Shown one piece after another: positions 31,516 through 49,578 of a DNA stretch of 64,000 bases. The stretch comes from an uncultured Dehalococcoidales bacterium (GTDB lineage: Bacteria > Chloroflexota > Dehalococcoidia > E44-bin15), in contig CAYUCL010000003.1 of NCBI GenBank assembly GCA_964443325.1, forward strand, positions 33,961-97,960, written 5' to 3'. The translations under genes were made by a program, and so were the position numbers. Within the stretch, counting starts at the first letter, position 1, and every line of letters begins with the position of its first letter. Under the pieces are notes generated by a model. It did no database searches. It was not told the origin of the DNA and saw only the letters and a list, made by a program, of their open reading frames with translations.

Positions 31516-33003
31516 TTAGATGTCCACCTCTGGTGGCCATTCTGGCAGGTCCTTAAGTTCAGGGTGTTCCTTCCACCCAGGTATACCGGCAATTCTCTTA
31601 GCAATGGCTTTATACCTTGGCCAATCAGCAGAAGCGTAAAGAGCCATCCTTTGTGCTGCTAGAGAGCCTTCAGCATGAATAACGGTAGCGTCATGGCTAT
31701 CACCGGTCAGATCCTTTACCAGCCTTATAGCGCGAAGCCGATGTTCAGTTGGTACGCCACCCTTGGCGGCAAGATATTTGTCAATAAAAGGCTTTTCTTC
31801 AGGGTTCATCCAATCTTTGTAGCCAAAGACGGTTGTTGTGACTCCACCCGTGATATCGGCAAGAAGCTTGGAAGCCTCGTGCTGACCATTGGCAAACATG
31901 AACTTGGCTATATTGGTATACATCAGGTTGGGAGCAGCCAAGCCAATATCTTCATACATGTCAGGGTGCTCACAAGCTGCCTTGGCCATGGTATCGTTTA
32001 TCTGGCAATGCATGGCAAGCCATGCCAATTTCTCCTGGATATGAGGATACTTATCCAGACCATTGTATTCAGCCATCAGCGCCGCCGCGCCGGCAGTTTG
32101 CTCCAGTGATATCACTTTGTGAGTAGTGCCAAAGAGACGGTGGAAAACGCCAAAGGTCCAGGCAATATCTCTGGAAAACTGCCATTCGCCACACATAAAC
32201 ACCCTGTTCCAGGGGACAAAAACATCATCAAATACAATCATGCACTCACTAATCCCCGCAGAACGTCCGGTGAGAGGCCAATTCCACTGGGCTTCCTCAC
32301 CCGTTTCCGTAAAATGCGGTGGAGTGGTTATTAATGTGATGCCTTTAGCATTTATGGGAGTGGCAAAGACTAGTGCATAGTCCTTGTCTTCTTCACGGTG
32401 AGCCCGACATGGCGAAATGATCAGTTCGTTGGCATCGGGGGTAGCGCTTATGTGCGTCTTGGCTCCTCGCACTACTATGCCGTCTTTTTGCCTATCAACA
32501 ACCCTGACATAGAAATCCTGATGCTGTTCCTGCGCTGAGGGTCGAAGGCCCCTGTTGCCCTTAACATCGGTAATGGCTCCGGTGATAGCCGGGTCCGCTT
32601 TTTTCAGGTGCTGGCGATAATCCTCAACAGCATCCATATAATGCGTGCCTAATTCCCGATCCATTCTTGTAGCGACAACACCTGCGGCAGCCAGGGCATC
32701 AGGACCCATACCACTAATGCCTGCTCCTACCCGGAGAGCGGTTATATAAACATCCCTTCGTCTTATAAGGTCTTCAGCGGTTTTGGGCTGATTCCACAGG
32801 AACATGACTCTTTCCCCGTCCTCCTCCATGGTAATCAGGTCTCGATATTGAGGATCATTAGCAAGAACATAACCCATGGCTCTACGCTGGATGGCTCCCT
32901 TCATAAGGGGATGCTTCGTTATGTCGGGTATCTTCTCCCCCATAAGATAAATCACTCTTCCGTCATTCAAGCTTTCTATATACTGCTGTGGTGTCCTAAT
33001 CAT
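31516..33003 (-). CDS. HpaB / 4-hydroxybutyryl-CoA dehydratase family flavoenzyme (4-hydroxyphenylacetate 3-hydroxylase-like fold)
   Basis: 495 aa with acyl-CoA-dehydrogenase-like HpaB architecture. Paralog of 45345..46784. No CxxxC / H-x6-C Fe-S ligand pattern of AbfD was noticed. Confidence 0.65.
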   Translation of the reverse strand: MIRTPQQYIESLNDGRVIYLMGEKIPDITKHPLMKGAIQRRAMGYVLANDPQYRDLITMEEDGERVMFLWNQPKTAEDLIRRRDVYITALRVGAGISGMGPDALAAAGVVATRMDRELGTHYMDAVEDYRQHLKKADPAITGAITDVKGNRGLRPSAQEQHQDFYVRVVDRQKDGIVVRGAKTHISATPDANELIISPCRAHREEDKDYALVFATPINAKGITLITTPPHFTETGEEAQWNWPLTGRSAGISECMIVFDDVFVPWNRVFMCGEWQFSRDIAWTFGVFHRLFGTTHKVISLEQTAGAAALMAEYNGLDKYPHIQEKLAWLAMHCQINDTMAKAACEHPDMYEDIGLAAPNLMYTNIAKFMFANGQHEASKLLADITGGVTTTVFGYKDWMNPEEKPFIDKYLAAKGGVPTEHRLRAIRLVKDLTGDSHDATVIHAEGSLAAQRMALYASADWPRYKAIAKRIAGIPGWKEHPELKDLPEWPPEVDI

Positions 33004-33176
33004 GACAACCTCCTTTAATTAGATTTCAACTCCGCTACCTGCTCCATGACTTTTATACTATACAACCTTCTTCACCTCCAACAAGTTAAATTCTACTAAT
33101 GCTTAATACGAAAGACTGCATAACATAGAATATATATTCCCTCTTTCATGTCAAGTGAAAACGAAAGCGCAAGTGC

Positions 33177-34127
33177 CTACTCTGCACCCGCCAATGAGCC
33201 AAAACTCAGGCAAATAGCCATCGCTTCTTCTATCAGTCTCGTTACTATTTGTTCAGCACTCTCGATTTCTGTGATCATCCCGCCAACCTGCCCTGCTGTC
33301 ACGCTTACATCCGATCTGCTCCTGCGTTTCCTCTTAATCTGACTGGCCAGGTCTTCAAGCTCTTGGGCTGTTGCACCTTCTCTCTGTCTACGAAACCACT
33401 GCTCCAACTCAGGGCTTTTGAGCACTCGAACATTTCTACCGGTGAAAATCGGCGTAGGGACTGTGTCTTCTTCTGAAGCTTCAAGTATCTTCTGTTTTTG
33501 TTCAAAGCTAGCCCCACTCTCATGGGTAGCTAAGAAACGAGTTCCCATTTGGACCCCACAGGCTCCTAGCGCCAAAGCAGCAACAAAGCCACGAGCATCG
33601 CCTATCCCCCCTGCGGCAACCACTGGGATCTTCACCGCGCTAACCACCTGAGGAATTAAAGGCAAGCTACAAACTGTCCCCACATGCCCCCCAGCCTCCA
33701 TGCCAGACGCTATAACTGCGTCAGCTCCTTCCTTTTCCATTCGTACAGCGTGCCTTACGGCGGCCACCACCGGCAGAACGGTAATACCACGTCCCTTCAG
33801 CAAGGATACGATGGGCTTCTTGGGATCTCCACGTCCTGTGGTAACTATGGTAACTCCCTCTTCAACAGCCACCTTTGCCACGCGGCTGACAAAGGCTGGC
33901 TTAGCAGCATAGATGTTGAGGCCGAAAGGTTTGTCGGTGAGAGCCCGGGTTTGACTTATCTCCTCTCGCAATTGCCCAGTAGTCAAACCGAAAGACGCTA
34001 AAACCCCCAAAGCTCCTGCATTGGAGACGGCTGCTGCCAAGAGATGCCCGCCACTAACACCACCTAAGGCACCCTGAATAACAGGGTATTTGATTCCAAG
34101 CAGGTCACAAAGCTTCGTGTGAAACAT
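33177..34127 (-). CDS. nitronate monooxygenase / FabK-like FMN-dependent oxidoreductase (NMO family)
   Basis: N-terminal LLGIKYPVIQGALGGVS motif and TIM-barrel FMN pattern, 316 aa. Confidence 0.7.
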   Translation of the reverse strand: MFHTKLCDLLGIKYPVIQGALGGVSGGHLLAAAVSNAGALGVLASFGLTTGQLREEISQTRALTDKPFGLNIYAAKPAFVSRVAKVAVEEGVTIVTTGRGDPKKPIVSLLKGRGITVLPVVAAVRHAVRMEKEGADAVIASGMEAGGHVGTVCSLPLIPQVVSAVKIPVVAAGGIGDARGFVAALALGACGVQMGTRFLATHESGASFEQKQKILEASEEDTVPTPIFTGRNVRVLKSPELEQWFRRQREGATAQELEDLASQIKRKRRSRSDVSVTAGQVGGMITEIESAEQIVTRLIEEAMAICLSFGSLAGAE

Positions 34128-34396
34128 ACTATATATAATGCAATAGGAAGCTAGTCTTCAGAGCGCTCATACTGCCATCTCCCACATCCCCAGGCACCCT
34201 TCATCCAGCACCTGAATGTGAACATCAAAAGCCTACTACCCTGCTTATGAACTGTCAATGGGAGGGGGTCGATTGCGAGTTTCAAAAAGGATGAAGATGT
34301 TATATTATTGGAAGTTAAGATACTAGCTTAATGGCTAGTTGTGTAGATGGGAAGGTTGTTCATCGGAGTTTATTTTAGTCAGCTAGGGGGAATAGA

Positions 34397-35521
34397 ATGG
34401 CTATCGCTATTCTATATCGAGAAGAACTAAAAGAGTATGATTTTGGTCCAGCTCATCCGTTTCGAGGAGATCGGTATGAAGCATTTATTCACCTGCTAAA
34501 GGACAGTTTGACTGAGGACGATATCTATAGGATTATCGAATCAGATTGGGCCACTGCGAAAGACCTGCTGCGAATATGCGATAGTGATTACATAGATTTC
34601 ACCACTGAGTTCTACAAAGCAGCCAATCTAGGACTGGACTATGGTGGGCCATTTAGTCAATTCCACTCCGACGATAATGCACCGGGCGGCATAACAGGGA
34701 AGGTAGAGGAGGCAGCCAGGCTGGTCATCGGGCAGGCTGAACTAGCTTGCGATCTGGTTGAGCGCGGTGAATTCAAAAAGGTAGTGTCCATCGGCGGAGG
34801 GCTACATCATGCCCAGAAAGACTATGGGGAAGGCTTTTGTCTCTATAACGATGTTGCCTTTTGCGCTACATATTTGATGGAAAGCTACGGTTTGGAAAGG
34901 ATTTTAATTTTGGACACCGATGCCCATGCCGGAAATGGAACCAGCGCCTATTTCTACCAGACCTCAAAGGTACTGTTTATCGACTTGCACCAGGATCCCT
35001 TAACGCTATATCCCGGTACTGGGTTTGCCCATCAAATCGGCGAAGGAGACGGAAAAGGTTTCACAATAAATGTGCCTCTCCCGGTTTTTGCCGGCTATGA
35101 CTCCTATAAACTGGTCTTCGACGAGATAGTCCAGCCGGTAGTTAACGAGTTTGGGCCTCAGATTATCATTAGGAACGGGGGCTCCGACCCCTATTTTGAC
35201 GATGGATTGACTAGCCTGGGTCTAACCGTAGTCGGGTTCCGGATGATAGGAGAGATAGTCGCTCAGTTGTCTGCCCAGCTCTGCCAGGGTAGGGTTATCG
35301 ATTTAATCGCCTCTGGGTATAACAAGCGAGCCTTACCTTACGCCTGGCTAGCATTGATTTGTGGATTGGCTGGCATACAAATCTCTATCGCTGACCCTGA
35401 GCCGATTCCTCAAAGATTCACCAAAGATCCTTCATTCGAGGATACCAGGACAGTAGTAGGGGAGGTTAAGGGGAACCTAAAAGATTTCTGGCGCTGTTTC
35501 AGCACGGCTCAATCGCTTTAG
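34397..35521 (+). CDS. histone deacetylase-family amidohydrolase (AcuC / acetylpolyamine amidohydrolase-like)
   Basis: GGGLHHA, FCLYNDVA and ILDTDAHAGNGT zinc-site motifs. Confidence 0.8.
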   Translation: MAIAILYREELKEYDFGPAHPFRGDRYEAFIHLLKDSLTEDDIYRIIESDWATAKDLLRICDSDYIDFTTEFYKAANLGLDYGGPFSQFHSDDNAPGGITGKVEEAARLVIGQAELACDLVERGEFKKVVSIGGGLHHAQKDYGEGFCLYNDVAFCATYLMESYGLERILILDTDAHAGNGTSAYFYQTSKVLFIDLHQDPLTLYPGTGFAHQIGEGDGKGFTINVPLPVFAGYDSYKLVFDEIVQPVVNEFGPQIIIRNGGSDPYFDDGLTSLGLTVVGFRMIGEIVAQLSAQLCQGRVIDLIASGYNKRALPYAWLALICGLAGIQISIADPEPIPQRFTKDPSFEDTRTVVGEVKGNLKDFWRCFSTAQSL

Positions 35522-35834
35522 GGCATCCATCTTTTCCCTGCTATCCAATCTCGACCTTCGTACTGCATTCCCGGGAAAAGCAATCCTTCCATCGTATGTA
35601 TCACGATCGGTGGCGAACGGATGCCCATCTTTGCCGCCTTGAAGCGGTAGATTTGCAATGCATTTCTTAGGTGAGCGGTTTTTCTCCCTCATTATCGCAC
35701 TATGAGATATGCTATTTAATGAATACACCTTGACTTGCGTCCCTACCTATTGTTGATTAAAATATTATCAGCACCATGAAAGTCGAAGCAACAATGACAA
35801 GCGACAATGCCAAGGTAGAGCGAGGTGTAGGATA

Positions 35835-36530
35835 GTGGAAACCGGGGATGAAAGAATACGATATGCCATTGAACACACAGCGGTGTTGAGATTCCCCAGG
35901 CAATCTCTGGCTACATTCGGCACTACCAATGTGAACTACTACTTATTAACCAAACCGGTGTATGCCGAGATGGTAGATAAAGAAGAGACTGTCATAAGGG
36001 AGGGGAGAGTCAGTGCAGAAAGACCGAAGATAATAACACCTTCTTATCTTACCAGACTTGAGGGTTTTGGCGAAAATGCCAGGAGATACCTTGAAGTTGT
36101 AGTGAGAGAGTATGGGCCTCATGCTCCTGGGCTTCTCTATAGCTATAAAAATGAGCCGAAAGGGCTCTCAACTGTATCCGACGGATTGGGCGTAGTAGTC
36201 GGAAGATTAAATGAGAGAATAGACAAGGAAGAAAATAGGCTGGCAGCGATTATACAAGGCATTGATGAACTGTGGGACGTATCGCTACTCAAGTTCATAA
36301 AGGAGTTAACAGAGGGGTCACTTAGAAGCAACCTTGCCGAATTAGGTAGTAGAGGCCTCCTCGACATAGACTACGCCGGTGTTCCAAGAGATGCAAGATA
36401 TCGAATTGAGCTACTTTTTCAGCAGGTCGCAAGCGGTGAACGAGACCCATCGGAACTGAAGAGAGAGCTTGATAGATGGGAGCTGTTCCCTGAATACGAG
36501 GACCGATTCCTCGGCCTATTTAGCAAATAG
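35835..36530 (+). CDS. hypothetical protein
   Basis: GTG start. No family recognised. A promoter-like TTGACT...TAAAAT lies upstream. Confidence 0.3.
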   Translation: METGDERIRYAIEHTAVLRFPRQSLATFGTTNVNYYLLTKPVYAEMVDKEETVIREGRVSAERPKIITPSYLTRLEGFGENARRYLEVVVREYGPHAPGLLYSYKNEPKGLSTVSDGLGVVVGRLNERIDKEENRLAAIIQGIDELWDVSLLKFIKELTEGSLRSNLAELGSRGLLDIDYAGVPRDARYRIELLFQQVASGERDPSELKRELDRWELFPEYEDRFLGLFSK

Positions 36531-36569
36531 GCACATCCCTTCACCGCCGCGGTGGCGCAAATCTGCTGA

Positions 36570-37772
36570 TTACAGTATCGCCCCTTCTTCCTTCATCGCG
36601 ATGATGTCATCCCAGGTGTACCCCAAGTCGAGAAGTATCTCTTCGGTATGCTGGCCCAACTCGGGCGCCTGCTCTCGCACCATGCCCGGCGTCTCGCTCA
36701 GGTCGAGATTGACCCCAACCACCTTGGCCTCGCCGACGCCCGGATAGTCGATGGTCACCAGATAGTCATTCTCTATCACCTGCGGGTCGGAGGCCAGCTC
36801 GGTGAAAAGCTGCACTGGCGCCCACGGGAACTGCCACGGCTCCAGGCACTCGATCCACTCTCTCTGTGTTTTGGTGAGGAACAACTCGTCAAGGATGGAC
36901 ACCAGAGCATCGCTGTTCTCCCGCCTTGCTTCGTAGGCCCCGAAGCGGGGGTCCTCCTTCAGGTACTCTATCCCCACGGCTTCGCAGAACTGTGCCCAGC
37001 TCGCGTCGTCGTGCATAACCGCAATCTGGATGAACCTGTTGTCCTTGGTCTCATAGATGTTGTACAGGGAGCCCTCTTGCACGTGTGACTTGCCATACAT
37101 GTCCTGATTGGCGTATAGAGAGGCATCGACACTACAGGCCGCCATCTTCATGAAGGCGCCAAGAAGTGAGGTGTGCACCAGTTGCCCCCTGCCGCTTCTC
37201 TCGCGGTGATAAAGGGCGAGCATAACTCCGTAAACTAGGTATGTCGCTGCTATGTAATCACCCAGTGCTGGCGGCCACACCGCGGGGCGAACCCCGCGCT
37301 CGACGAAGCTCGTTAGCATCCCGGACCCCGCAACTCCGGTCACCTCGAAGCCGCCACGATTACGGCCCGGCCCCTTCAGCCCCCACCCGGTGCCCAAGGC
37401 ATATATGAGCCTGGGATTCATGTGGGACAGCGTATCGTAGTCCACTCCCAAGCGCTCAAGACCCCCCATCCGCAGGTTTGTTACGAAGATATCTGCATCC
37501 CCCACCAGCTTGTACATCACCTGCCTTGCACTCTCGAAGTGCAGGTCGAGCGTCATGCTCTTCTTTCCACGCTGGATCTGGTCGAAGTACGAATTGAATC
37601 CGTTTGACGGCACGCCGCGCAGGATATCCACCCCTCGCAAAGGGTCACCGCCGCGGGGAGTCTCAATCTTAATCACCTCCGCCCCCATCTCGGCAAGGTA
37701 TTCTGAGGTTCGCGGGCCGAATGCCTGTATGGTGAAATCAACGACCCGTATGCCCTCCAGTGGTGCACTCAT
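36570..37772 (-). CDS. family III CoA-transferase (CaiB/BaiF family)
   Basis: N-terminal LEGIRVVDFT..GP.....LAEMGAEVIKIE motif, 400 aa. Confidence 0.8.
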   Translation of the reverse strand: MSAPLEGIRVVDFTIQAFGPRTSEYLAEMGAEVIKIETPRGGDPLRGVDILRGVPSNGFNSYFDQIQRGKKSMTLDLHFESARQVMYKLVGDADIFVTNLRMGGLERLGVDYDTLSHMNPRLIYALGTGWGLKGPGRNRGGFEVTGVAGSGMLTSFVERGVRPAVWPPALGDYIAATYLVYGVMLALYHRERSGRGQLVHTSLLGAFMKMAACSVDASLYANQDMYGKSHVQEGSLYNIYETKDNRFIQIAVMHDDASWAQFCEAVGIEYLKEDPRFGAYEARRENSDALVSILDELFLTKTQREWIECLEPWQFPWAPVQLFTELASDPQVIENDYLVTIDYPGVGEAKVVGVNLDLSETPGMVREQAPELGQHTEEILLDLGYTWDDIIAMKEEGAIL

Positions 37773-37805
37773 CTATGCCTTCTCCTCTCCATGGTATGCC
37801 AGCTC

Positions 37806-39008
37806 TCAGAGTACTGCACCCTTCTCCTTCATCACAATTATGTCATCCCATGTATAGCCCAGTTCCAACAGAATCTCTTCCGTTTGTTGACCCAGTTCTG
37901 GAGCCTTGCCTCTTATCTGGCCTGGCGTCTTGCTTAGATCGATAGCAGTCCCCACTACTTTGACTTCACCAACCTCCGGATCATCCAAAGTAACAATATA
38001 ATCATTTTCAATAATTTGTGGGTCCGAAGCTAGCTCGGTAAAGTACTTAACTGGCGCCCATGGAAACTGGTATTTCTCGAGGCGCTCGATCCATTCGCTC
38101 TGGATTTTAGTGAGAAATACTTCGTCCAATATAGTAATAAGAGCCACATTATTTTCACGTCTGGCCTCTGGAGAGTTGAATCTGGGGTCATCATTTAAGT
38201 GCTCAAGGCCCATTGCTTGACAGAATTCAACCCAACTGCGGTAGTCCTGAACCACTGCCAATTGTATCCACCTCTTGTCCTTAGTCTGGTACATACTATA
38301 CAGAGCGCCATCACCTTCATGGGGCAATCCAAACATGTCCTTCCCCGCAGCAATGGAAGTATCAATAACAGCGGACATAACCTTCATACAAGTACCCAGA
38401 AGTGATACATGTACCATCTGACCTTCTCCGGTTCGTTCCCGGTGAAAAAGGGCGAGCATTATGCTATATGCCAGAAATGTTGCCGCCGTATAATCACCAA
38501 AAGCCGGCGGGCACAGCGGTGGGCGGGAGCCAGGCTCAACAAAACCCGACACTAATGCAGATCTGGCAAAACCGGTAGCCTCAAAAGCACCCCGGTTCCG
38601 TGCTGGGCCCTTCAGGCCCCACCCAGTGCCAATAGCATAGATTAGCCTGGGATTGACTCTGGATAGAGTCTCATAATCCATTCCCAGCCTTTCCAATCCA
38701 CCCATCCTCAGGTTCGTTACAAAAACGTCTGACTTCTCAATGAGTTTGTATGCTACCTCGCGTGCTTTCTCATGATGTAAATCCATGGCAATGCTTTTCT
38801 TCCCCCGATTGGTTTGCTCAAAATAAGCCTTAAACTTGCCAATTGGCACTTCCCTCATGTTATCTATCCAGCGAATAGGCTCACCGCTTTGGGGATTCTC
38901 TATCTTGGTCACCTCAGCTCCCATTTCAGCGAGATAGGCAGCAGTCTGAGGGCCAAAAGCATATTGGGTCAAATCCAGAACCTTGATTCCTTCTAGAGGC
39001 ATGCTCAT
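37806..39008 (-). CDS. family III CoA-transferase (CaiB/BaiF family), tandem paralog
   Basis: LEGIKVLDLTQYAFGP..AAYLAEMGAEVTKIE motif. About 60-65% identical to the downstream paralog, separated by 33 nt. Confidence 0.8.
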   Translation of the reverse strand: MSMPLEGIKVLDLTQYAFGPQTAAYLAEMGAEVTKIENPQSGEPIRWIDNMREVPIGKFKAYFEQTNRGKKSIAMDLHHEKAREVAYKLIEKSDVFVTNLRMGGLERLGMDYETLSRVNPRLIYAIGTGWGLKGPARNRGAFEATGFARSALVSGFVEPGSRPPLCPPAFGDYTAATFLAYSIMLALFHRERTGEGQMVHVSLLGTCMKVMSAVIDTSIAAGKDMFGLPHEGDGALYSMYQTKDKRWIQLAVVQDYRSWVEFCQAMGLEHLNDDPRFNSPEARRENNVALITILDEVFLTKIQSEWIERLEKYQFPWAPVKYFTELASDPQIIENDYIVTLDDPEVGEVKVVGTAIDLSKTPGQIRGKAPELGQQTEEILLELGYTWDDIIVMKEKGAVL

Positions 39009-39877: not shown

Positions 39878-40126
39878 ATGAGCAGAATCATTTTAGAGAA
39901 GGTATTACTCTATCGAAAGGACGGAATGGTTCCCCAGGCCTTCATCTGGCGGGGCCGAGTCTACCGCATCACCAGCGTCATAAACTGGTGGCGAGAGCCC
40001 GGAGCCTGGTGGGAGGGGGAACCAGTACGCTCTTTTCTCCGGGTCACTGCTAAGAGGGAGACCGAAGGCGTATGCGACCTGTGCAGGGTGGGACAAGATT
40101 GGCTGCTGTACCGAATTTACGACTGA
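39878..40126 (+). CDS. small conserved-looking hypothetical protein (82 aa, Trp/Arg-rich) translationally overlapping the dnaE start
   Basis: MSRIILEKVLLYRKDGMVPQAFIWRGRVYRITSVINWWREPGAWWEGEP... Its stop at 40124-40126 lies inside the first codons of the DnaE ORF. Confidence 0.4.
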   Translation: MSRIILEKVLLYRKDGMVPQAFIWRGRVYRITSVINWWREPGAWWEGEPVRSFLRVTAKRETEGVCDLCRVGQDWLLYRIYD

Positions 40127-43100
40127 AGGAGTTCATTCACCTCCATGTCCATTCCCCATACAGCTTTCTCGACGGCGTATCCCCTATCGAGCGCCTTCTA
40201 CAGAAAGCAAAGCATTTCGGCATGCCTGCTATGGCCCTAACCGACCATAATAGCCTGACCGGAGCCATTCGCTTCTACGATAGGGCAAGGGAAATGGGCA
40301 TCAAGCCTATTATCGGCGCTGAGGTCGATGTCGAAGGTGGTTATCACCTGACCATTCTAGCCCAGGGTATCGAGGGGTATGCCAACCTGTGCCATCTTCT
40401 TTCCGAAGCCCACCTGGCCAAGCTCGATCCCCACCCGGCGGCTACCAAGGAGATGCTGGCCAGGCATTCCAGTGGTCTCACAGTCCTCTCCGGTTGCAAC
40501 AAAGGCGAGATTCCTAGCCTGGTCGCCAGGGGCCTCCCGGAAAAAGCGAAGGAAGCTGCAGCATTTTACCAGAGCATCTACCCGGACCGCTTCTACATCG
40601 AGCTTGTCTACCACCCCAACAGGGATGGCAGGCGCTCCATATATCGACTGCTGGAGTTCGCCAGGGAGCTATGTCTTCCCGTCGTCGCCACCAACGACGT
40701 TCACTATGCTGAGATGGAGGAATACGCCGTCCACGAACTCCTGGAATCTATCCGGCAGATTATTCCCATAGAGCAACTTCCGGGCCCCAGGACGGTGGAG
40801 CAGTACCTCAAATCCCCTACCGAGATGGCCGCCCTTTTCAGGGATATCCCTGAAGCCCTAAGCAACACGGTAGCGGTGGCCGAGCAATGCAATCTTGATC
40901 TCCCCCTGGGCGAGCCCAAGTTTCCCGTTTTCTCTCCTCCTGCCGGATACAGCGCGCAGAGTTACCTGAGGGAACTGACATATCAAGGAGCCTCGCGTAG
41001 GTATGGAAATCCCAGCACGGTGATCCTGGATCGCCTGAAGCACGAGTTTGAGGTTATTAGCCTACTGGACTTTGAGACCTATTTCTTAGTGGTGTGGGAT
41101 ATTGCCCGCTTCGCCAGGGAAAGAGGCATCCGCTACCAGTGCCGGGGCAGCGCCGTCAATAGCCTTGTAGTCCACTGCCTGGACATCAGCAATGTGGACC
41201 CGTTGGAGTACGATCTGCTCTTTGAGCGCTTCATGCACAAGGAGCGCCGCGAGATGCCAGATATCGATCTCGACTTTCAGCGCACCAGGCGGGATGAGGT
41301 GAAGGAATACATTACCAGCAAGTACGGCAGGAACAGCGTGGCGGCAGTGGCTACCATCAACACCTTCCAGGCCAGGAGCGCCATCCGGGAGGCAGCCAAA
41401 GCTCTCAACCTGCCTAAAAGTGCTTTAATAGGGCTTCAGGCAGGCGTCCGATGGCAGTCGGTAAAGGAGCTTGCAGCGTGCACCAATACTCTCCCCGAAT
41501 TGAAGACTAACCGAGCCCTCAGAAACCCGGTGTTCAGGGATTTTCTAAAGCTGTGCTCAGCCCTGGACGGTCTGCCCCGGCACCTGTCGGTGCACCTGGG
41601 TGGTCTGGTTATCAGTCCAGGCAGTCTTGCCGACTGGGTGCCACTGCAATGGTCCAGCGGCGGCGATGTCATCACTCAGTTCGAAAAGGACGACATCGAG
41701 CGTCTGGGCCTCATCAAGATGGATATCCTGGCCGTTCCCACACTGGACGTCATCGAGGACACGGTGGCTGAGGTGAAAAGAATCCGGGGCGTCGAGGTAA
41801 ACGTAGACTCCATCCCCCGAGACGATCCCGCAGTCTTTGCCATGCACCGGGAGGGGGACACCATCGGCTGCTTTCAGGTGGAGAGCCCGGCGCAACGGGA
41901 GATGGCAGGTAGGCTGCTTCCCGAATGCTTCGATGACCTGATACTGCTACTGGCTCTCATCCGGCCAGGACCCATGAAATCGAGGATGCACGAGAAATAC
42001 CTTAAAGTGAGACAGGGGCAACAGCCGCTGACCTATCTGGACAAAAGGCTGGAACCAGTGCTCAAGGAGACCCTGGGCCAGTTGGTCTACCAGGAGCAGG
42101 TGCTCCCACGAACTGGCGGGGATGAGCTACGCCGATGCCGACGGGCTGAGGCGGGCCATGACCCATGGACGCTCTCCCGAAGAGATGGAAAAGATACGCG
42201 AGGCTTTTATCTCCTCATGTCTGAGCAACAGCGTATCTAAGACAATTGCCCAGACAGCTTGGCAAGAGGTCTCAGCCTTTGCTGCATATGGCTTCCCCAA
42301 GGGTCATGCCGCCTCCTATGCCATTCCTGCCTATCAAACCTTGTGGCTTAAGTGCCATTATCTGCCGGAGTTCCTGGTCAGCGTCCTCAATAACCAACCC
42401 ATGGGCTATTATCCACCCTGGGTGTTGGTGCAGTATGCCGGGTGGAAAGGAATCGAGGTGCTGCCACCCGACATCAACATGTCCATGGATCGCTATTCCT
42501 TAGAGGATCGAGCTATCAGGATGGGGCTGTCTCAACTCAAGGGGGTCTCTAACCCAGCCTTGGCTTCTATACTCAGCGCCAAAAATAAGGATGGGCAATT
42601 CCGCAGTGTGGGGGACTTTCTGCTGCGAACAAACGTGCCCAAGTCAACCACTGAGGATCTCATCAAGGTGGGGGCCTTCGACTCCATTTGTGGTAACCGG
42701 TGCCAGCTTATATCCCAGCTAGATTCCCTGCTTACGAACAAGCAGAGGCGCAGGCATGGTACGCAGAATGAAATGATTCCCTTTGGCGAAGTTGGCAAGG
42801 AAAATCTCACCGATGCCTCAACTCCACCCATCGATGCTGCTCTGTGGCAGCACTACGAGCTTGACCTGCTGGGTCTTCCCATTAGCGGACACCCTCTGGA
42901 TTCGCTGGATGGCCGGATTAAGGGCATCACCAAAATCAAAGACCTGAAGGGGTTGCTAGCCAACCACCGGGTAAAACTTGCAGTGGGGGTTATCAGATAC
43001 CAGACCCCGCCTATCTGGGATGGAACCAGAGTTGTCTATATCTGCGCCGCGGACGAAACGGGCATTGTGGATATAACTCTCTTCTCGGACGCCCAGGAAC

Positions 43101-43246
43101 GCTCAGGTGAAGCTCTCTTCAAGGCAGGATGGCTCTTGGTTGAGGGAATTGTGCAGCGTCGAGGACTCCACGCACTGTCAGTGATAGCTTATCGTGTTGC
43201 CACCTTACAGCCCCCCGCTTCAAGTCAACGTAAAAAATGTTTTTAA
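40072..43246 (+). pseudogene. dnaE: DNA polymerase III alpha subunit (DnaE family, short form ending after the OB fold) interrupted by a +1 frameshift near 42100-42112
   Basis: ORF 40072..42240 carries the PHP domain (HLHVHSPYSFLDG) and polymerase core up to ...VYQEQVL. DnaE homology then continues in the +1 frame (HELAGMSYADADGLRRAMTHGRSPEEMEKIR..FAAYGFPKGHAASYAIPAYQTLWLKCHYLPEF..) as ORF 42122..43246. The combined length is about 1055 aa. Confidence 0.75.
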
Positions 43247-43483
43247 TTTGGCAACTATCCCTTGAAGGTAGGTATAATACAATGATAATGGGTAAAACAA
43301 ATAGGCTGGAGACCTTGCTCATTGCCTCTCAACCTATTTGCTATTGGGTTCTATATTACAGTCGATTGCTTTCCCATCAAGCTACCGCCCCACCAAGATT
43401 ATAGCACTATGATAAAATTTTTGACTAGAGAGCAATAAAATGATATGCTGACTTCCCTGAAAGGCCAAGAAGGGAGGCGCAGT

Positions 43484-44305
43484 ATGTCATTGGGTATAGT
43501 ATTCAAGGGACCCGAAGGCATTGTTTTAGCTGCTGATAGTAGGGTTACGCTTAACGCACATTTGCCAAACCAAAATTTAATCATTTCAGCTACGTTTGAT
43601 AATGCTACTAAGCTACTCAGAGTTAAGGGGCAAGATTATATCGGAGCAGTCACCTATGGGATGGGAGCTCTAGGAGAAGGAACTCCTCGAACCGCTCACA
43701 GTTTTATCCCAGAATTTGAGGCTAAGTTAAGTAATGAATCAGGGGATAGATTGAGTGTCCCAGATTTTGCAGATAAGATTAGTGAGTTTTTCTTGTCTCA
43801 ATGGACAACAAGCATGCCCAACAATTATCAAGGACCAGATATGGTATTTCTGGTAGGTGGGTTTGACGAAGGTTCTCCGTATGGGCGAGCCTTTGAGATT
43901 GGGATACCCTCTCGACCAACACCAAAAGAATGGCACGTAAATACTTTTGGGCCTGTATGGGGTGGGCAGCGAGAGTTCACAGACCGTTTAATACAAGGAT
44001 TTGACCCAAGAGTGCTAGATATAGTTAAGGATACATTTGGCTTATCTAATGACCAGCAGGTTGAATTACAAGATAAACTTAAACCGCTCAGCGTGCAAAT
44101 CCCTTATCCTTTTCTACCATTGCAGGACTGTGTTGACTTGTCTATCTTTTTAGTGAGAACTACTATGACTATTCAAACATGGCAAGTAGGTGTGCGGGGC
44201 GTAGGTGGTGCAATAGATGTCGCTACTATTACTCGAACTGATGGATTCAAGCCTGTGCAACTGAAAAGAGTAAGAGGTGAATCATCCAGTATGGAGGAAG
44301 ATTAA
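43484..44305 (+). CDS. proteasome beta-subunit-type Ntn-hydrolase homologue with Ser at the nucleophile position
   Basis: Start at the internal Met, which has a GGGAGG RBS. MSLGIVFKGPEGIVLAADSRVTL aligns with proteasome beta / HslV / Anbu N-termini (TTIVGV.YKDGVVLAADTRAT). Asp17 and a Lys about 40 are retained, and there is a C-terminal extension. Confidence 0.5.
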   Translation: MSLGIVFKGPEGIVLAADSRVTLNAHLPNQNLIISATFDNATKLLRVKGQDYIGAVTYGMGALGEGTPRTAHSFIPEFEAKLSNESGDRLSVPDFADKISEFFLSQWTTSMPNNYQGPDMVFLVGGFDEGSPYGRAFEIGIPSRPTPKEWHVNTFGPVWGGQREFTDRLIQGFDPRVLDIVKDTFGLSNDQQVELQDKLKPLSVQIPYPFLPLQDCVDLSIFLVRTTMTIQTWQVGVRGVGGAIDVATITRTDGFKPVQLKRVRGESSSMEED

Positions 44306-44306
44306 A

Positions 44307-44504
44307 GTGGAAGTTCTAACAAATGGAGTGGGAACAAAAGAATGGGAGGAAATAAGTAAGGATTGGTATATTTACGCATATGTGCCAGGTTCTCCTATAG
44401 GTGATGTAACCGAAGGGTTATCTTCAGAAGAACAGGATAGTGTTTTCACGAAACAAGACTCTGAAAAAGTACTCAAAGAAGTTAGCCGCAAAATTAAGAA
44501 GTAG
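44307..44504 (+). CDS. small hypothetical protein (about 65 aa) translationally coupled to the proteasome homologue
   Basis: GTG at 44307, 1 nt after the TAA stop of the upstream gene, with GGAGGAAG 7 nt upstream. No family recognised. Confidence 0.3.
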   Translation: MEVLTNGVGTKEWEEISKDWYIYAYVPGSPIGDVTEGLSSEEQDSVFTKQDSEKVLKEVSRKIKK

Positions 44505-44665
44505 TTATTTGGCCTAGAACAGTCTTGAACATAGCTCTTTCATCTTTCCTATGATTGTATCGAAAGGTGTATTCGTCTAGACATGATTGGAGATACTTAG
44601 GTGATATAGCATGATAGACATCAGAAATACCACGCTTAACCAAAGACCAGAAACCCTCAATGCTA

Positions 44666-45181
44666 TTACTGCTGAGAATCCTTCTCCATCTCCTCCAGGA
44701 TGATTCTGGTTGTGAGCCTGGCTGTTTCCCCAACGAGCTTTGAGCAATAATCGAACATACCAAACTTCGTGGCTTCTTGTAGCTCATTAGGGTCATACAG
44801 GTTGAAAGTCCTGCCCATAAGCCTTTCTTGAATGTCGTAACACCGGCAAGTGCCATATTTTTCAACAAACTCGTCATGCAACCTTTTTGACAGTATATAG
44901 GATTTCAGCGGCTTCATCATATCGGCAAAATCCTTCCTTTCCCTGCCAAAAAGATAGCCTATCACTATAGCCCCTGCCGTGAGAGACCCACAAGTCCCAT
45001 CTCCGGTTAGCCCCAGCCCGTCAGCTAAACCACTCGCCGCCTTGAAAACATCTTCATTGTCAATATCAAGAGCATCGAAAATTCCCGCAATCGTAGTCTG
45101 TGCGCATCCAGTACATTCCCTTTCATACTTGCGCCCCCGCTCAAAGGCCTTATTTGAAATCTCTTCGATTGACTTTCCCAT
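44666..45181 (-). CDS. C_GCAxxG_C_C family (putative redox-active) protein
   Basis: CTGCAQTTIAGI motif plus downstream Cys residues. Start moved to the Met with an AAGGGGG RBS. Confidence 0.6.
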   Translation of the reverse strand: MGKSIEEISNKAFERGRKYERECTGCAQTTIAGIFDALDIDNEDVFKAASGLADGLGLTGDGTCGSLTAGAIVIGYLFGRERKDFADMMKPLKSYILSKRLHDEFVEKYGTCRCYDIQERLMGRTFNLYDPNELQEATKFGMFDYCSKLVGETARLTTRIILEEMEKDSQQ

Positions 45182-45344: not shown

Positions 45345-46784
45345 CTATGGCAACTTATACACTGGCTCTGTAGGTAGATCCTTGAAATCAGGATGGTCCG
45401 TAGGAAGTCCCAGAGAATGCCTGGCCGCAGCCTTATATCGCTCCCAATCGGCCTGCATATAAACCGTCATTCGCTGAGCCGCCAAAGACCCCTCAGCATG
45501 AATGGTAAGCGCTCCCATGAAAGACGAGCCCTCACGGTTTACCGCATTCATAAGTTGTATCCTCTCCTCAGCAGGATACTCCGCAGCGCCCTGAAGATAC
45601 TTCTCCAGATAAGGACGGATTTCGGGATTGTCCCAGTCCTTCAGCGAAGGCATGGTTGCTGGAAGCCCACCAGTTATGTCCTGGAGATACTTGACTGCCT
45701 GATGCCAATTTTCGGCAAACCAGAACTTAGCACAATTGCTATAGACCGGATTGGGCGCCGCCAGACCTATCTCCGGGTCTATTGTAGCGTCTAAAGCTGC
45801 TGCCTTGCCCAGAGCCTCATTTATCTCAGCATACATAGCAAGCCAGGCTAGCATGTCCATAATACGGGTAGCACGAGTGAGTCCATTGTGTTCTGCCATT
45901 AACATGGCAGTCCCTGCAAGCGTCTGGAGCATAACCGTCTTGTAGGTGGCGGCAGTAAGTCGATGGTATCGCGCGAATGACATCGCTACCTCCCTTGAAA
46001 ACTGCCACTCCCCGGCGAGGAAAACCTTGTCCCAGGGAACAAAAACATCGTCAAAGACAATCATCGGGTGTGCCCCAGGCTGCCCCTGATCCGACATAGT
46101 CCCAATAAAAACAACCCCTTTGGCGTTGCATGGTACGGCACAGGCCACAGCATAATCTTTGGCCGGCTCATTGTGGTTGCGTGAGGGCAATACTACTAGC
46201 CAATTGGCATAAATGGCGTCGGTGATGTGAACCTTGGCACCCCTGATGACGATACCATCGCTGCTTCGGTCAACGATCCTGACATAGAAATCTGGATTCG
46301 CTTGCCTTGGGTCTTCGGGGTGCAAGCTCCTGTTGCCTTTCACATCGGTCATTGTAGCAACAATGCCAGGGTCATGTTTCTGACAATAATTGCGGAATTC
46401 TTCAACGTGCTCGGCATAATTGGTGCCTATCGCCAGGTCCATCTTCCTGGCGCTGTAGGCAATTCCGTTCAGTCCATCAATTCCGGTGAACTTCGTACCT
46501 CCGGCAGCCGAGCGAAACAGCGTCTGAATGATCAGTCTCCGTCTCTGAAGATCTTCACCAGTCTTAGGCACGTGATAAACAAAAGGATACTCTTCCCCAT
46601 CCTTCACCACATTGAACAGCTCACGGTTCTCAGGCTGCAAAGCTATATAGTATTCTGAAGCTGCGTGCTCCACTGCTCTCTTGTAAGCTGGAAGGGAAGG
46701 TACATCCGATACCCTCTCCCCATCCTGGTAAACTACCCTTCCATCTCTCAGGTCTTCTACAAACTGCTCAGGCGTCCTAAGCAT
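45345..46784 (-). CDS. HpaB / 4-hydroxybutyryl-CoA dehydratase family flavoenzyme, paralog of 31516..33003
   Basis: 479 aa. Conserved blocks DFYVRIVDRS.DGIVIRGAK.H.T, IVFDDVFVPW.KVF..GEWQFSR and TIHAEGSLAAQRM are shared with the other copy. AAGGAGG RBS. Confidence 0.65.
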   Translation of the reverse strand: MLRTPEQFVEDLRDGRVVYQDGERVSDVPSLPAYKRAVEHAASEYYIALQPENRELFNVVKDGEEYPFVYHVPKTGEDLQRRRLIIQTLFRSAAGGTKFTGIDGLNGIAYSARKMDLAIGTNYAEHVEEFRNYCQKHDPGIVATMTDVKGNRSLHPEDPRQANPDFYVRIVDRSSDGIVIRGAKVHITDAIYANWLVVLPSRNHNEPAKDYAVACAVPCNAKGVVFIGTMSDQGQPGAHPMIVFDDVFVPWDKVFLAGEWQFSREVAMSFARYHRLTAATYKTVMLQTLAGTAMLMAEHNGLTRATRIMDMLAWLAMYAEINEALGKAAALDATIDPEIGLAAPNPVYSNCAKFWFAENWHQAVKYLQDITGGLPATMPSLKDWDNPEIRPYLEKYLQGAAEYPAEERIQLMNAVNREGSSFMGALTIHAEGSLAAQRMTVYMQADWERYKAAARHSLGLPTDHPDFKDLPTEPVYKLP

Positions 46785-47046
46785 GATACCTCCTTAGTCT
46801 GTTCTTAATTATGCACATATTTTTAAAAAACAACCCTAACGTTATTTTCGCGATATGACCCCCTCCCTTCATGTATCTCTATGAGTCAAGGCATCGATAT
46901 TGTGGTATTTCCAAGTTGCCTTGTCAATTATTTGTATTTACCCACACCAACGTTATACTATCATACCACTATCCGAAATCTTTTTAAAAAAAGAATGAGC
47001 CCCCCGACTTCACCGGAGGGCCCCATTCAATATTCCCAGCCTATCT

Positions 47047-49578
47047 CTAGCCCAGTCCTTGCACTGTCCTCTGGATAATATTGTCCTGTGTCTTGCGGCT
47101 GATGTCCACAAAATGGGCGCTGTACCCAGCCACCCGCACTATCAACTCCTGGTACTTCTCCGGCTCCCGCTGCGCCGCCCGCAACGTGGCATCATCTACC
47201 ATGTTGAACTGCACATGGTCCAGCCCCAGGTCAGCCCATGTCTTCATGTACGCCTTCCATAGCTGATACCCCTTCTCCCCCGCTAGCTGCGTCGGAGAAA
47301 GCCGCTGGTTCAACAGGAACGCCCGGCCATCGCTGATGTGGTTTATCTTGCCGCATGACTTCAGCACCGCTGTTGGCCCCTTCTTGTCAAGTCCAGGGCC
47401 TGGTGAAAGGCCTCCGTCGTAGAGGGCGTCGCCCAGCCTCCTGCCATTGGGCAAGGCATGTACCCTATTGGAGAAATGGATGTTGCCGCTCACATTCTCC
47501 GGCAGCACCGGCCATGGGTTTCCGCAAGGGTCCTTCAACTCGTGGGAGTGTCGGCTTATTTCGTGCAAGCAGCGCACCATTATATCGTCCACGTAGTCTT
47601 CATCATTGCCCCACTTGGGAGCTCTCTTGACGAAGTCAAGCCGTATTTCCTCGTAGCCCTCCCAGTTGGCTTCAAGGGCGGTTATCAACTGGTCCATTGA
47701 GTACTTCTTATCTTCAAATACGAGCTTCTTCACCGCCGCCAGAGCATCTACATTCTCTACCCATGTGAAGAAGGTAACCCAGCTATTGCCTCGCTCACCA
47801 GACCTTGGGTCGACTGTGTCCCAACCGCTGTCCACCGACCTCTCGGAGATGCCCGACAAGAATGGACGACCGAAACTCTTATAGGAATTCGCCCGCCCGG
47901 CGTTAACGATGCGCACCCCAAAGTTCATCAACCACTCCATCTGTTTGACCCACGCCTCAAACAATTGCTCAAAGTCGGTGAACTGACGCGCATCGCCAGT
48001 CTTCGGCCCTATCTGCATCTGCATACAATGGTCATATCCATTATGGAGGGCATACTCGATCATCTTTGCGGCGTTCATAGTCGCCGATGCCATTCGGCAC
48101 GGCTGATAGCCATACTTGGTGGTGGGAGCGGGCGACATGCACGCCTGGTGCACCCATGTCCTCATCTCCTCCAGAGGGTGATTATGCCAGTACATCCCAT
48201 TTTGAATCAGGATGGGGTCATTGCGAATCGAGGGATAGCCCAGACCATGCCTGATACACTCGAATATCTCCCGCATTACCTCATCTTTTACCTGAGGATG
48301 CCAGCGGAAGCCAAAGGTAGGGTTGGACACCCGCACCATCCTCGCCGCCTGCAGGAACGCTGTCGTCAGGTCGGTACATGCATCACTACCATCCTTATTT
48401 ACCCCACCCAGAGTCCACACCCAGGTGCCTACTATGCCCTGCAGCGCTTCGGCTCCACCTCGGCCTAAAAAGTGGCCCATTTCGTAGGCTCGGATGAGGG
48501 ACTCCCCTACCAGGTCGAGCGCTTCGTCCTTGGTGAGTGTCTTATCTATATTCACATCCTTGTTGTAATAGGGCCAGCCATAGTAGTCCGGTCGTGTAGG
48601 CCACGCCGACTCAAATTCCTCCAGTCTGGTCCAGGTTTGTATGAAGTGCTGCATCTGCAAATGCTCCTGGAAGGTTCTGGCCGGCTTCGCCGGCACCCGC
48701 TCGCAGGTTTCGGCGACCTTCAGCAGCTCCTCCTTGCGCCTGGCATCCGGTTCATAGTTCTCCGCTATAATCCGCGCCAGCCTTGCATATCGCTTAGCGT
48801 GATTGATGCAACCCTCCAGTGCGATCTGCATCGCCTCCCAGTTGGGCAGCTTCTCGTAAATGTCAAGCTCAGCACCATCGGGCGTGCCATCTAGCTGATC
48901 CTCACCCTCATCGATCTTCACCTGGATGTCGTTGATCATATCCTCGAATCCCTTGCCACCACCCACCTCCTGGTTCTTACCAAATATGTACTCATAATCT
49001 TTACCGGAATAACCATAGCTGCCACCGAAAGGAAAACCCCACATGAGCGCCCCTGTAATGTACTTCCCCACATCCTCAGACCTGAGAATCTTGAACATCT
49101 CCTTTATATGACCCTGAGTGCCCCAGTAGTTGGCGACATCAGACATAATCTGTAAGGATTCCTCCTTCGGCTCAGGGATGATGATCGGATCATTGTAGAT
49201 CTCACCACCCATCATCTGCGCATTGGCATACAGGGTGTTCGGAAGGTTACCCTCAGTAGCTACAAGCTGTGCATGATCGCTTATGAAAACAGTCCTGTTT
49301 TCCATCATATAGGCCAGAGCCTTCGCCCTCCTCAGCATGAGGGGGTTACCTTCGCTCGCCTTCCAGCCCTCGGTGTATAGCTGTGGGCTTTCCAGGTCAA
49401 TCTTTAGACCCTGTTCATACGCCCCTCCCCTTCGCCCCTTTTTCCACACCGCTTTCCTCAGGTAGTCCAGCCTCGGCGACCTCTTCTTCTCCGCCGCCCA
49501 CCACCACGCCCTTTCCGTCTCGAGCTCATCTACAGACTTATCTGGCGCTGCACTTTGCTTTGCTATTATTTCCGCCAT
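47047..49578 (-). CDS. glycyl radical enzyme, X-succinate synthase (fumarate-adding enzyme, BssA/AssA-like) catalytic subunit candidate
   Basis: 843 aa. Glycyl radical loop RVAGYSAHFVDI at the C-terminus, Cys loop HQACMSPAP, GND(E)D block, and multiple blocks recalled as BssA-like (see findings). Confidence 0.7.
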   Translation of the reverse strand: MAEIIAKQSAAPDKSVDELETERAWWWAAEKKRSPRLDYLRKAVWKKGRRGGAYEQGLKIDLESPQLYTEGWKASEGNPLMLRRAKALAYMMENRTVFISDHAQLVATEGNLPNTLYANAQMMGGEIYNDPIIIPEPKEESLQIMSDVANYWGTQGHIKEMFKILRSEDVGKYITGALMWGFPFGGSYGYSGKDYEYIFGKNQEVGGGKGFEDMINDIQVKIDEGEDQLDGTPDGAELDIYEKLPNWEAMQIALEGCINHAKRYARLARIIAENYEPDARRKEELLKVAETCERVPAKPARTFQEHLQMQHFIQTWTRLEEFESAWPTRPDYYGWPYYNKDVNIDKTLTKDEALDLVGESLIRAYEMGHFLGRGGAEALQGIVGTWVWTLGGVNKDGSDACTDLTTAFLQAARMVRVSNPTFGFRWHPQVKDEVMREIFECIRHGLGYPSIRNDPILIQNGMYWHNHPLEEMRTWVHQACMSPAPTTKYGYQPCRMASATMNAAKMIEYALHNGYDHCMQMQIGPKTGDARQFTDFEQLFEAWVKQMEWLMNFGVRIVNAGRANSYKSFGRPFLSGISERSVDSGWDTVDPRSGERGNSWVTFFTWVENVDALAAVKKLVFEDKKYSMDQLITALEANWEGYEEIRLDFVKRAPKWGNDEDYVDDIMVRCLHEISRHSHELKDPCGNPWPVLPENVSGNIHFSNRVHALPNGRRLGDALYDGGLSPGPGLDKKGPTAVLKSCGKINHISDGRAFLLNQRLSPTQLAGEKGYQLWKAYMKTWADLGLDHVQFNMVDDATLRAAQREPEKYQELIVRVAGYSAHFVDISRKTQDNIIQRTVQGLG

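Follow-up and report, generated by a model that had tools for sequence, protein, structure and literature searches.

In a 64,000-nucleotide stretch of contig CAYUCL010000003.1 from an uncultured Dehalococcoidales bacterium (hereafter the window), a proteasome-like hydrolase with a predicted N-terminal serine nucleophile is encoded together with a small partner protein on what its sequence indicates to be the remains of an IS1595-family transposon. The hydrolase (273 amino acids; 43484..44305, forward strand) and the partner (65 amino acids; 44307..44504, forward strand) recur as a pair in related loci, where the partner combines a conserved N-terminal motif with a variable tail, and the class of that tail tracks the identity of a third gene. 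From these patterns we infer that the hydrolase could be a sequence-specific peptidase of the N-terminal nucleophile (Ntn) type with a catalytic Ser, acting on or through its small partner within a control module resembling toxin-antitoxin systems, a reading that we favour tentatively and would not yet call probable. The finding itself is real, and its genomic context is more interesting than the Ser nucleophile alone; the fold and the existence of orphan bacterial homologues were known already, whereas novelty appears to lie in the partner motif, the pairing with toxins and the transposon frame.

Protein relatives were collected from a 90%-clustered protein database (E<=1e-3) and by a profile scan of a 50%-clustered library. 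Genomic context was compared across 80 related loci with a total length of ~1.09 Mb, 78 of which come from species-representative genomes, all of them metagenome-assembled. The phyla sampled comprise Acidobacteriota, Chloroflexota, Aminicenantes, Desulfobacterota, Actinomycetota, Dormibacterota, Alphaproteobacteria, Spirochaetota, Atribacterota, Poribacteria, Calditrichota, Gemmatimonadota, and others.

Fold and active site of the hydrolase

The hydrolase gene is an intact open reading frame (ORF) with an ATG start and a TAA stop; its product begins MSLGIVFKGPEGIVLAADSRVTL... and a ribosome-binding site, GGGAGG (43472..43477, forward strand), can be read directly 6 nt upstream of the ATG. By sequence alone the support for a proteasome-type protein is weak. 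The match of the window protein to PF00227 (Proteasome) has E=0.14 and 12.3 bits, below the Pfam cut-off of 22.4 bits, and when 140 single relatives were compared with the same profile, 112 matched at E<=1 (best 5.7e-4) and none exceeded the cut-off. NCBIfam and PADLOC scans of the hydrolase returned nothing, and an hhalign comparison with Escherichia coli HslV was not significant. The family itself is large: 2591 relatives were found at E<=1e-3, all unnamed or annotated as 'hypothetical' and none with a Pfam domain; their identity to the query is 58-72%, also for members of other phyla (recovered accessions: MBI3660174.1, MBI1742156.1, MBI4524806.1, and HEY3131616.1). From the 50%-clustered library the hydrolase profile retrieved 2966 clusters at E<=1e-3, of which 296 reach E<=1e-30, and position 1 of the profile corresponded to residue 1 of the protein in most cluster representatives.

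Structure prediction provides strong evidence for the proteasome type. The AlphaFold model derived from alignment A2, which holds 140 hydrolase sequences picked for diversity, has a mean predicted local distance difference test score (pLDDT) of 91.5 and a predicted template modelling score of 0.88, and was used instead of a poor model built from 30 close sequences (pLDDT 58.9). It displays the four-layer alpha-beta-beta-alpha Ntn sandwich with the strand and helix order of proteasomes. A Foldseek search of the Protein Data Bank (PDB) yielded 426 matches at E<=1e-3, the top ones all being 20S proteasome subunits, and the structural neighbours closest to the model are Anbu and 20S beta; a viral fold library returned only proteasome-like phage proteins, and nothing further was gained from it. 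The protein is thus assigned to the proteasome-like Ntn superfamily by its predicted fold and active site, not by the Pfam threshold. A first-pass annotation of the window, made from the letters of the sequence, had read the gene as a possible new bacterial proteasome-homologue variant, and the structure model and Foldseek support this reading; of the checks it named, profile comparison stays below threshold and structure prediction comes out proteasome-like.

With Ser2 placed in the position of Thr1, an ungapped register pairs D18, R20, K43, and G59 with Asp17, Arg19, Lys33, and Gly47 of proteasome beta subunits. Three lines of evidence underlie this mapping: the N-terminal alignment without gaps, the succession of secondary-structure elements, and the register of the HslV hhalign comparison. 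A hidden Markov model (HMM) alignment to the Thermoplasma acidophilum beta subunit that introduced a 2-residue gap and thereby moved the nucleophile was dropped, the ungapped register pairing D18 with position 17 and R20 with R19. The predicted catalytic residues are accordingly Ser2 (43487-43489), Asp18 (43535-43537) and Lys43 (43610-43612), with Gly59 (43658-43660) as the predicted oxyanion residue, all on the forward strand. Among 213 relatives with a readable N-terminus, the nucleophile position is occupied by Ser in 207, by Thr in 6 and by no other residue, and the annotated start codon directly precedes it in 193; Ser or Thr likewise follows the start codon in the 80 genomic loci, which were read without annotation. 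D18, S19, R20, K43, and G59 are invariant in A2, as are Q214, D215, R238, G241, and G242. The first-pass annotation had noted a Ser in place of Thr behind the Met, a conserved Asp17, and a Lys that follows an insertion; each of these holds across the family, and a variable, lengthened S3/S4 beta-hairpin does precede Lys43. It had also named two outcomes that would speak against it, a placement outside the Ntn proteasome fold by profile searches and loss of the Ser/Thr position, as expected of an inactive alpha-like scaffold; neither occurred, and the family is uniformly Ser or Thr (213/213). Methionine aminopeptidase cleaves Met before Ser. The initiator Met before Ser2 is thus predicted to be removed, which would expose the nucleophile without a propeptide. 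Strict retention of Ser/Thr, Asp18, Lys43, and Gly59 together with the placement of the start codon in more than 200 sequences argues for selection for catalysis, and this sequence record indicates strong selection on the Ser or Thr at the N-terminus as well as on Asp, Lys, and Gly of the putative catalytic set.

In its overall architecture the model retains H1 (residues 72-85) and H2 (92-110), carries the C-terminal strands of the proteasome fold at residues 240-259 (VGGAIDVATITRTDGF vs. SGGMIDVAVITRKDGY in T. acidophilum beta) and ends after S11. The C-terminal extension of ~60 residues described at first was therefore a misreading: the additional length resides in the longer S3/S4 hairpin and, mainly, in a two-helix insertion at approximately residues 172-212 (43997..44119, forward strand), whose helices 176-185 and 189-202, as assigned by DSSP, sit between H3 (164-171) and H4 (213-233). 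The insertion ends in an invariant IPYxFLPLQDCVD, with L211, L213, Q214, and D215 invariant near its end. A PDB sequence match (E~1e-3) of residues 159-213 (window 43958-44122) to camelid nanobodies was rejected as a chance resemblance to the VHH framework (GKEREFV...DSVKGRF...).

A conserved partner encoded directly downstream

The small ORF starts with a GTG at 44307, 1 nt after the hydrolase stop, and has its own ribosome-binding site, GGAGG (44293..44297, forward strand), which is read directly 10 nt upstream and falls within the hydrolase gene, at its 3' end; the first-pass annotation had described this arrangement correctly. Support for the ORF comes from the conserved motif HMM and from a public 65-residue gene call (P0220). 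Its N-terminal motif, LTNGVGTKEWEEISKDWYIYAYVP, spans residues 4-27 (44316-44387, forward strand) and follows the family consensus xGTNSA(S/G)T(K)DWLxA(S/T)(K/R)GMxI(S/T)AY(D)P, in short form TNxAxTxDWLxAxxGxxIxAY. The survey of synteny that had been suggested as a check revealed a real conserved partner: an HMM of this motif, built from downstream ORFs, matches right behind the hydrolase gene, on its strand, in 54 of the 80 loci, distributed over more than 12 phyla, and several more loci fit by eye. The encoded proteins, of ~65-75 amino acids, consist of the conserved N-terminal motif of ~24 residues and a variable tail, and a Trp at about residue 13 is invariant among them, the window copy included. 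The distance from the hydrolase stop to the start of the small ORF has a median of 2 nt, with 42 of 49 gaps between -20 and +35 nt and a 4-nt overlap in 8 loci. These sequence features identify the small ORF as a genuine conserved partner that is in all likelihood translationally coupled to the hydrolase gene. A full-length profile of the small ORF found 20 matches only in the protein database, all hypothetical proteins of 65-89 amino acids. We rejected the idea that the small ORF is the precursor of a ribosomally synthesized and post-translationally modified peptide because its tails co-vary with toxin genes.

A group of Chloroflexia loci with MazF cassettes (L019, L025, L034, L035, L021) has mostly lost the Trp motif (e.g., MFNTITITSKDRPV...) and retains an E..A..DF..FE C-terminal tail; their hydrolases keep the catalytic residues. 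Possibly the recognition motif has diverged among these Chloroflexia.

Tail classes co-vary with the third gene

Four classes of tail were tabulated, three of which each go with one kind of third gene and the fourth with none. Tails of class A, W(D/E)xLSDEA, are accompanied by a PemK/MazF toxin gene in 11 of 13 loci, and those of class B, DRARMN, by a gene for a 200-217-residue protein that belongs to no recognised family in 5 of 6. For class C, FGxHxxEA, the third gene encodes a 55-residue membrane protein in 6 of 7 loci, and none of the seven loci of class D (FTKxDF...SRRIKK, with ...SRKIKK at the end of the window copy, whose tail reads FTKQDSEKVLKEVSRKIKK) has a third gene. Off-diagonal combinations of tail and third gene were absent, the exceptions in classes A-C being loci where no third gene was found.

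Pfam matches among the third genes include PemK/MazF (5.6e-22), PIN (5.4e-15; L012), ParE-like (8.4e-11; L017), and YoeB (3.9e-28; L046), to which a convergent Fic/Doc gene (4.3e-12; L030) and further PIN, MazF-like, and U217-like genes (L065, L064, and L032, respectively) can be added. Overall, a recognisable toxin gene stands beside the small ORF in at least 17 related loci. No toxin gene occurs at the cassette in the window, where the transposase remnant comes after the small ORF. Long forms of the small protein in L011 and L046 give a weak match to Phd-like antitoxins or a borderline match to GntR-type helix-turn-helix domains, and tails next to PIN genes carry a DFD motif and those next to MazF genes are acidic and contain Trp, both like the C-termini of classical antitoxins. 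As tail class co-varies with the toxin gene, the small protein fills the antitoxin slot in type II modules with toxins of at least five superfamilies, in each case carrying the one N-terminal motif and following the one hydrolase gene. When the hydrolases are arranged in a similarity tree, different cassette types intermingle, suggesting that tail and toxin have been exchanged repeatedly as one module.

Two kinds of third gene deserve separate mention. The genes associated with the DRARMN tail (L041:9048-9698, L061, L066, L068, L069, L080, L032) encode proteins of 200-217 amino acids with the signature MFAxxHDxPPSLRQGDII...AVISQCCDLD and no Pfam match, and represent a candidate new family of toxins or effectors. 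Those associated with the FGxHxxEA tail (L031, L033, L039, L052, L058, L074) encode predicted membrane proteins of 52-58 amino acids ending in ...YPDxHxKWAFGxxGxxxGYWL(K/R), candidates for a small membrane toxin.

The cassette as cargo of an IS1595-family transposon

Judged from its sequence, the segment 43250-44676 of the window appears to be an IS1595-family transposon that has decayed and carries a two-gene core cargo. Its left terminal inverted repeat, GGCAACTATCCCTTGAAGGTAGGTA (43250..43274, forward strand), begins 4 nt past the stop of a DnaE-like gene and ~210 nt before the hydrolase ATG. This is the sole match to the inverted-repeat core in the 64-kb window (2 mismatches, 0.01 expected by chance), and in alignment A5 it lines up with 11 further element ends, drawn from 7 more loci. 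On the far side, the last 60 codons and the stop of an IS1595-family transposase gene (44494..44676, reverse strand) converge on the small ORF and overlap its 3' end. The remnant matches PF12762 (DDE_Tnp_IS1595) with E 2.6e-9 over profile positions 113-153 of 153, and is 70% identical (E 2e-30) to residues 226-285 of the intact transposase of locus L063, with which it shares the last residue; the L063 transposase matches PF12762 at 3e-44, and the convergent overlap with the small ORF is found there as well. A composition profile delimits an island of low GC content (43200..44800; 0.39-0.45 vs. 0.50-0.58 in the flanks), which fits horizontal acquisition. Four further metagenome contigs of this organism show the same arrangement.

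The related loci supply what is missing in the window. An IS1595-family transposase gene lies near the cassette in 14 of the 80 loci, mostly in convergent orientation and 180-750 nt downstream. A 25-nt terminal inverted repeat, GG(Y)(R)ANTATCCC..GTAGG(K)A, is common to the upstream side of the hydrolase gene and the region beyond the 5' end of the transposase gene, and nearly all occurrences of its core in the ~1.09 Mb of loci fall in two places, 84-228 nt ahead of the hydrolase gene and immediately past the 5' end of the transposase gene. Four elements are complete and flanked by perfect target-site duplications of 8-9 bp: L063 (7907-9960; TAATATAA), L025 (7867-10542; TAAAACTA), L035 (7874-11306; ATACTTTA), and L050 (7782-11559; (C)GGCAAGCT). 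Target duplications of the IS1595 family measure 8 bp. The 2054-bp element in L063 is minimal: besides the transposase it holds just the hydrolase and the small ORF. Inverted repeats and target duplications around the cargo imply that the hydrolase, the small ORF, and the optional toxin have moved as a unit with the transposase. In the window, where the left repeat survives and the right repeat and the rest of the transposase gene are gone, a target duplication is unreadable; this copy is in all likelihood an immobilised, toxin-less remnant of class D in which both ORFs are intact.

Several observations concern the distribution of the elements. Two contigs of one metagenome-assembled genome, L025 and L035, carry two complete elements at different sites; the transposase genes share 84% nucleotide identity, and the hydrolase genes are too diverged for blastn, which points to independent acquisitions or old copies. 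L075 and L076, from one Longimicrobiales assembly, share a stretch of 10.6 kb at 99% identity with the cassette inside, probably an assembly overlap and not a true duplication; a comparison of the two aimed at delimiting the mobile unit was uninformative, the stretch being near-identical, and the hydrolase gene in both lacks the first ~60 codons. An IS1-like transposase with weak DDE_Tnp_IS1 and IS240 matches is found beside the cassette in 7 loci (L007, L031, L035, L046, L048, L056, L079), so the cassette resides in transposon-rich regions beyond its own IS1595 frame.

Relation to known systems

Within ~15 kb on each side of the hydrolase gene we found no gene for hslU or another AAA+ protein, for ATP-grasp, transglutaminase, alpha-E, or a 20S alpha subunit, and clustering of all ORFs within 5 kb of the hydrolase gene in the 80 loci produced no conserved large neighbour gene. 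The first-pass annotation had rightly stressed the missing proteasome partners, and had overlooked the transposon and the toxin-antitoxin setting. Like HslV/CodW and BPH, the window protein is a bacterial proteasome homologue with the nucleophile right behind the initiator Met, and CodW of Bacillus subtilis uses an N-terminal Ser. HslV, however, is a compact subunit of ~175 residues with hslU as its neighbour, and the window hydrolase has neither property. It differs from 20S beta in that there is no alpha gene within ~15 kb and no propeptide, in that Ser129, Asp166, and Ser169 are not kept, and in having Ser for Thr. Unlike Anbu, it lacks ATP-grasp, alpha-E, and transglutaminase genes both in the window neighbourhood and in the 80 related loci, and in contrast to Anbu and 20S beta alike it has no C-terminal H5 helix, carries the additional two-helix insertion between H3 and H4, and stays below threshold for PF00227.

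The closest published relatives may be found among the 22 uncharacterised proteasome-homologue families of Fuchs, Alva and Lupas 2021 (PMC8665760), which include homologues with multiple insertions (PMI) with WP_137109689.1 and HDY66466.1 among the representatives of their named clusters. According to that study, the superfamily allows a Ser nucleophile, families PMI-2 to PMI-6 have an insertion at the H3/H4 site that would hinder stacking of two rings, and no informative genomic context was found for the homologue families. The window hydrolase shares with the PMI homologues a beta-like core with Thr1/Ser1, Asp17, Lys33, and Gly47, the absence of a propeptide, the H3/H4 insertion, the lack of an AAA+ partner and of a Pfam assignment, and a position nearest the Anbu/20S side ('group II'). 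It is set apart from them, in a comparison made by description only, by the conserved small partner, the toxin genes, and the IS1595 frame. Connectase (the MJ0548 family; PMC7980362), an enzyme of the proteasome fold that acts by itself on a specific motif of ~20 residues, is the precedent for motif specificity in this fold and the closest functional analogy. Its architecture differs, as the window hydrolase has H1, H2, and an S3/S4 beta-hairpin whereas connectase lacks H1/H2 and has a helical S3/S4 lid; moreover, connectase is limited to methanogenic archaea and its substrate is MtrA, not a co-encoded small protein. By context and architecture, the window hydrolase is not an HslV, Anbu, BPH, 20S beta, or connectase.

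Two further systems resemble the cassette in its organisation. In toxin-antitoxin-chaperone systems (PMC5105189, PMC6377645) a SecB-like chaperone recognises a 'chaperone addiction' segment on antitoxins of different families, so that both arrangements combine one conserved accessory gene with a short conserved segment on antitoxins for different toxin families. Here, in contrast, the accessory gene encodes a proteasome-like hydrolase whose active site is intact, the segment is N-terminal and not C-terminal, and many copies are toxin-less. Transposons of the Tn3 family carry toxin-antitoxin passenger genes (PMC7157771) and are a precedent for toxin-antitoxin-like cargo within the inverted repeats of a DDE transposon, although the present elements belong to another transposon family and transport a proteasome homologue as well; IS1595-family elements with passenger genes form a further parallel. 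Searches of the literature, which did not extend to subscription journals, turned up no publication that connects proteasome homologues with toxin-antitoxin systems or with cargo of IS1595 elements.

Proposed function and alternative explanations

We propose that the hydrolase would act as a sequence-specific peptidase and not as a general degradation chamber, docking on the N-terminal motif of its partner and then cleaving it or turning it over; the constant motif would be what the constant enzyme recognises. The mobile element would in this way gain host-independent control over the level of an antitoxin-like or adaptor protein, following the logic of toxin-antitoxin-chaperone systems with a protease instead of the chaperone. 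Incompatibility of the H3/H4 insertion with double-ring stacking (PMC8665760) and the lack of an ATPase partner are counted in favour of the non-chamber reading. In its most far-reaching form, the cassette would be a mobile 'toxin-antitoxin-protease', in which a transposon-borne Ser proteasome homologue recognises a portable N-terminal degron or docking motif on antitoxins for at least five toxin superfamilies and on several uncharacterised effectors; we consider this rather unlikely in its full extent.

Several points weigh against the proposal. The nearest structural neighbours, Anbu and 20S beta, are ring-forming general proteases, and by sequence the auxiliary residues Ser129, Asp166, and Ser169 are not conserved, the residues aligned with them being G161 and V237/V240. 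The correlation of tail and toxin partly reflects shared ancestry of whole cassettes, and as about half of the loci, including the window, are without a recognisable toxin, a toxin-antitoxin role cannot be the whole story. Judged by sequence, the partner could be a substrate, an adaptor, or an inhibitor.

The last point bears on a model like that of type VI SocAB, in which the motif of the small protein anchors to the hydrolase and the tail recruits the toxin or another client for degradation. An adaptor would agree with a pattern in which motif and hydrolase stay constant and the tails fit at least five families of toxins, and the tails are short, enough for toxin binding, and without a DNA-binding domain; the resemblance of several tails to inhibitory antitoxin C-termini (acidic with Trp by MazF, DFD by PIN) and the toxin-less class D copies, which would be left without a client, nevertheless make this unlikely. 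The two-gene core might also be a toxin-antitoxin pair by itself, with an unrestrained hydrolase as the toxin, the small protein as its pseudo-substrate inhibitor, and the extra toxins as later add-ons. Minimal elements such as those of L063 and the window, which hold only hydrolase, small ORF, and transposase sequences, point in this direction, as do the mobile-element location and the tight translational coupling that is typical of toxin-antitoxin stoichiometry. Thr1Ser mutants of proteasomes are weaker, and a homologue with a Ser nucleophile and no unfoldase would hardly be broadly toxic; the tracking of the third gene by the tail would moreover stay unexplained, and we regard this option as quite unlikely. 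If, by analogy with connectase, the hydrolase recognised the ~24-residue motif in order to ligate or cyclise the small protein, one would not expect H1 and H2 to be present, the two-helix S3/S4 lid to be missing, and the similarity to Anbu and 20S beta to be far higher, so that a ligase is very unlikely.

Transposon context and strict active-site conservation place the two remaining alternatives lowest. An ordinary ring protease like HslV, BPH, or Anbu, engaged in quality control with the small ORF either unrelated or a gate or assembly factor, finds some support in the best structural matches, which are ring-forming subunits. Small assembly factors of the Ump1 type serve 20S proteasomes and offer a parallel for the small protein. 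Carriage by a transposon, patchy distribution, occurrence in metagenome-assembled genomes only, and ~60% identity between phyla are unlike a housekeeping protease, however, and the insertion at the ring-ring interface, the lack of an ATPase gene nearby, and partner tails that match toxins make this explanation highly improbable. A catalytically dead, alpha-like scaffold or chaperone that binds the motif as an analogue of the SecB-like chaperone would parallel the logic of chaperone addiction (PMC5105189, PMC6377645) and would agree with Ser129, Asp166, and Ser169 not being conserved, but it is scarcely credible given that the nucleophile, Asp18, Lys43, Gly59, and the start placement are strictly kept in more than 200 sequences.

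Independent of the exact mechanism, orphan bacterial proteasome homologues gain a functional handle through a co-translated partner with a ~24-residue motif, toxin-paired tails, and carriage by active transposons, and IS1595-type elements are seen to be able to spread complex cargo over more than 12 phyla, beyond resistance genes. If the enzyme does act on the motif, as in the sequence-specific peptidase reading, the cassette would be the protease counterpart of chaperone-addicted toxin-antitoxin systems and the hydrolase a second sequence-specific proteasome-fold enzyme after connectase, possibly of use as a biotechnological tool. It would also represent a dedicated single-substrate role for the proteasome fold in bacteria, with the element controlling its own addiction or defence module.

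Neighbourhood of the cassette in the window

A consensus scan found a promoter-like TTGACT-17-TATGCT with TG extension (43421..43449, forward strand) 35 nt upstream of the hydrolase ATG; promoter-like sites are not enriched relative to shuffled sequence, so it counts as weak evidence. Longer alternative starts at 43445 for the hydrolase and at 44277 for the small ORF found no support in the family comparison.

The genes within ~15 kb include two CoA-transferases, two HpaB-like enzymes, a glycyl-radical enzyme, a C_GCAxxG_C_C protein, a DnaE-type polymerase, and lipid and redox enzymes. Paralogous pairs of HpaB-like and family III CoA-transferase genes, together with the glycyl-radical enzyme, which resembles pyruvate formate-lyase, and the C_GCAxxG_C_C protein, flank the cassette at 31516-39008 and 45345-49578, and look like an anaerobic catabolic cluster for organic acids or aromatics that served as the site of transposon insertion. 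The DnaE-type gene for the DNA polymerase III alpha subunit (PHP, DNA_pol3_alpha, finger, and HHH_6 domains) is split into two parts, 40072-42240 and 42122-43246, both on the forward strand, which overlap by ~119 nt in different frames; the split may stem from a frameshift or a sequencing error, or mark a pseudogene. An ORF of 82 codons at 39878-40126 is located just upstream of the split gene.

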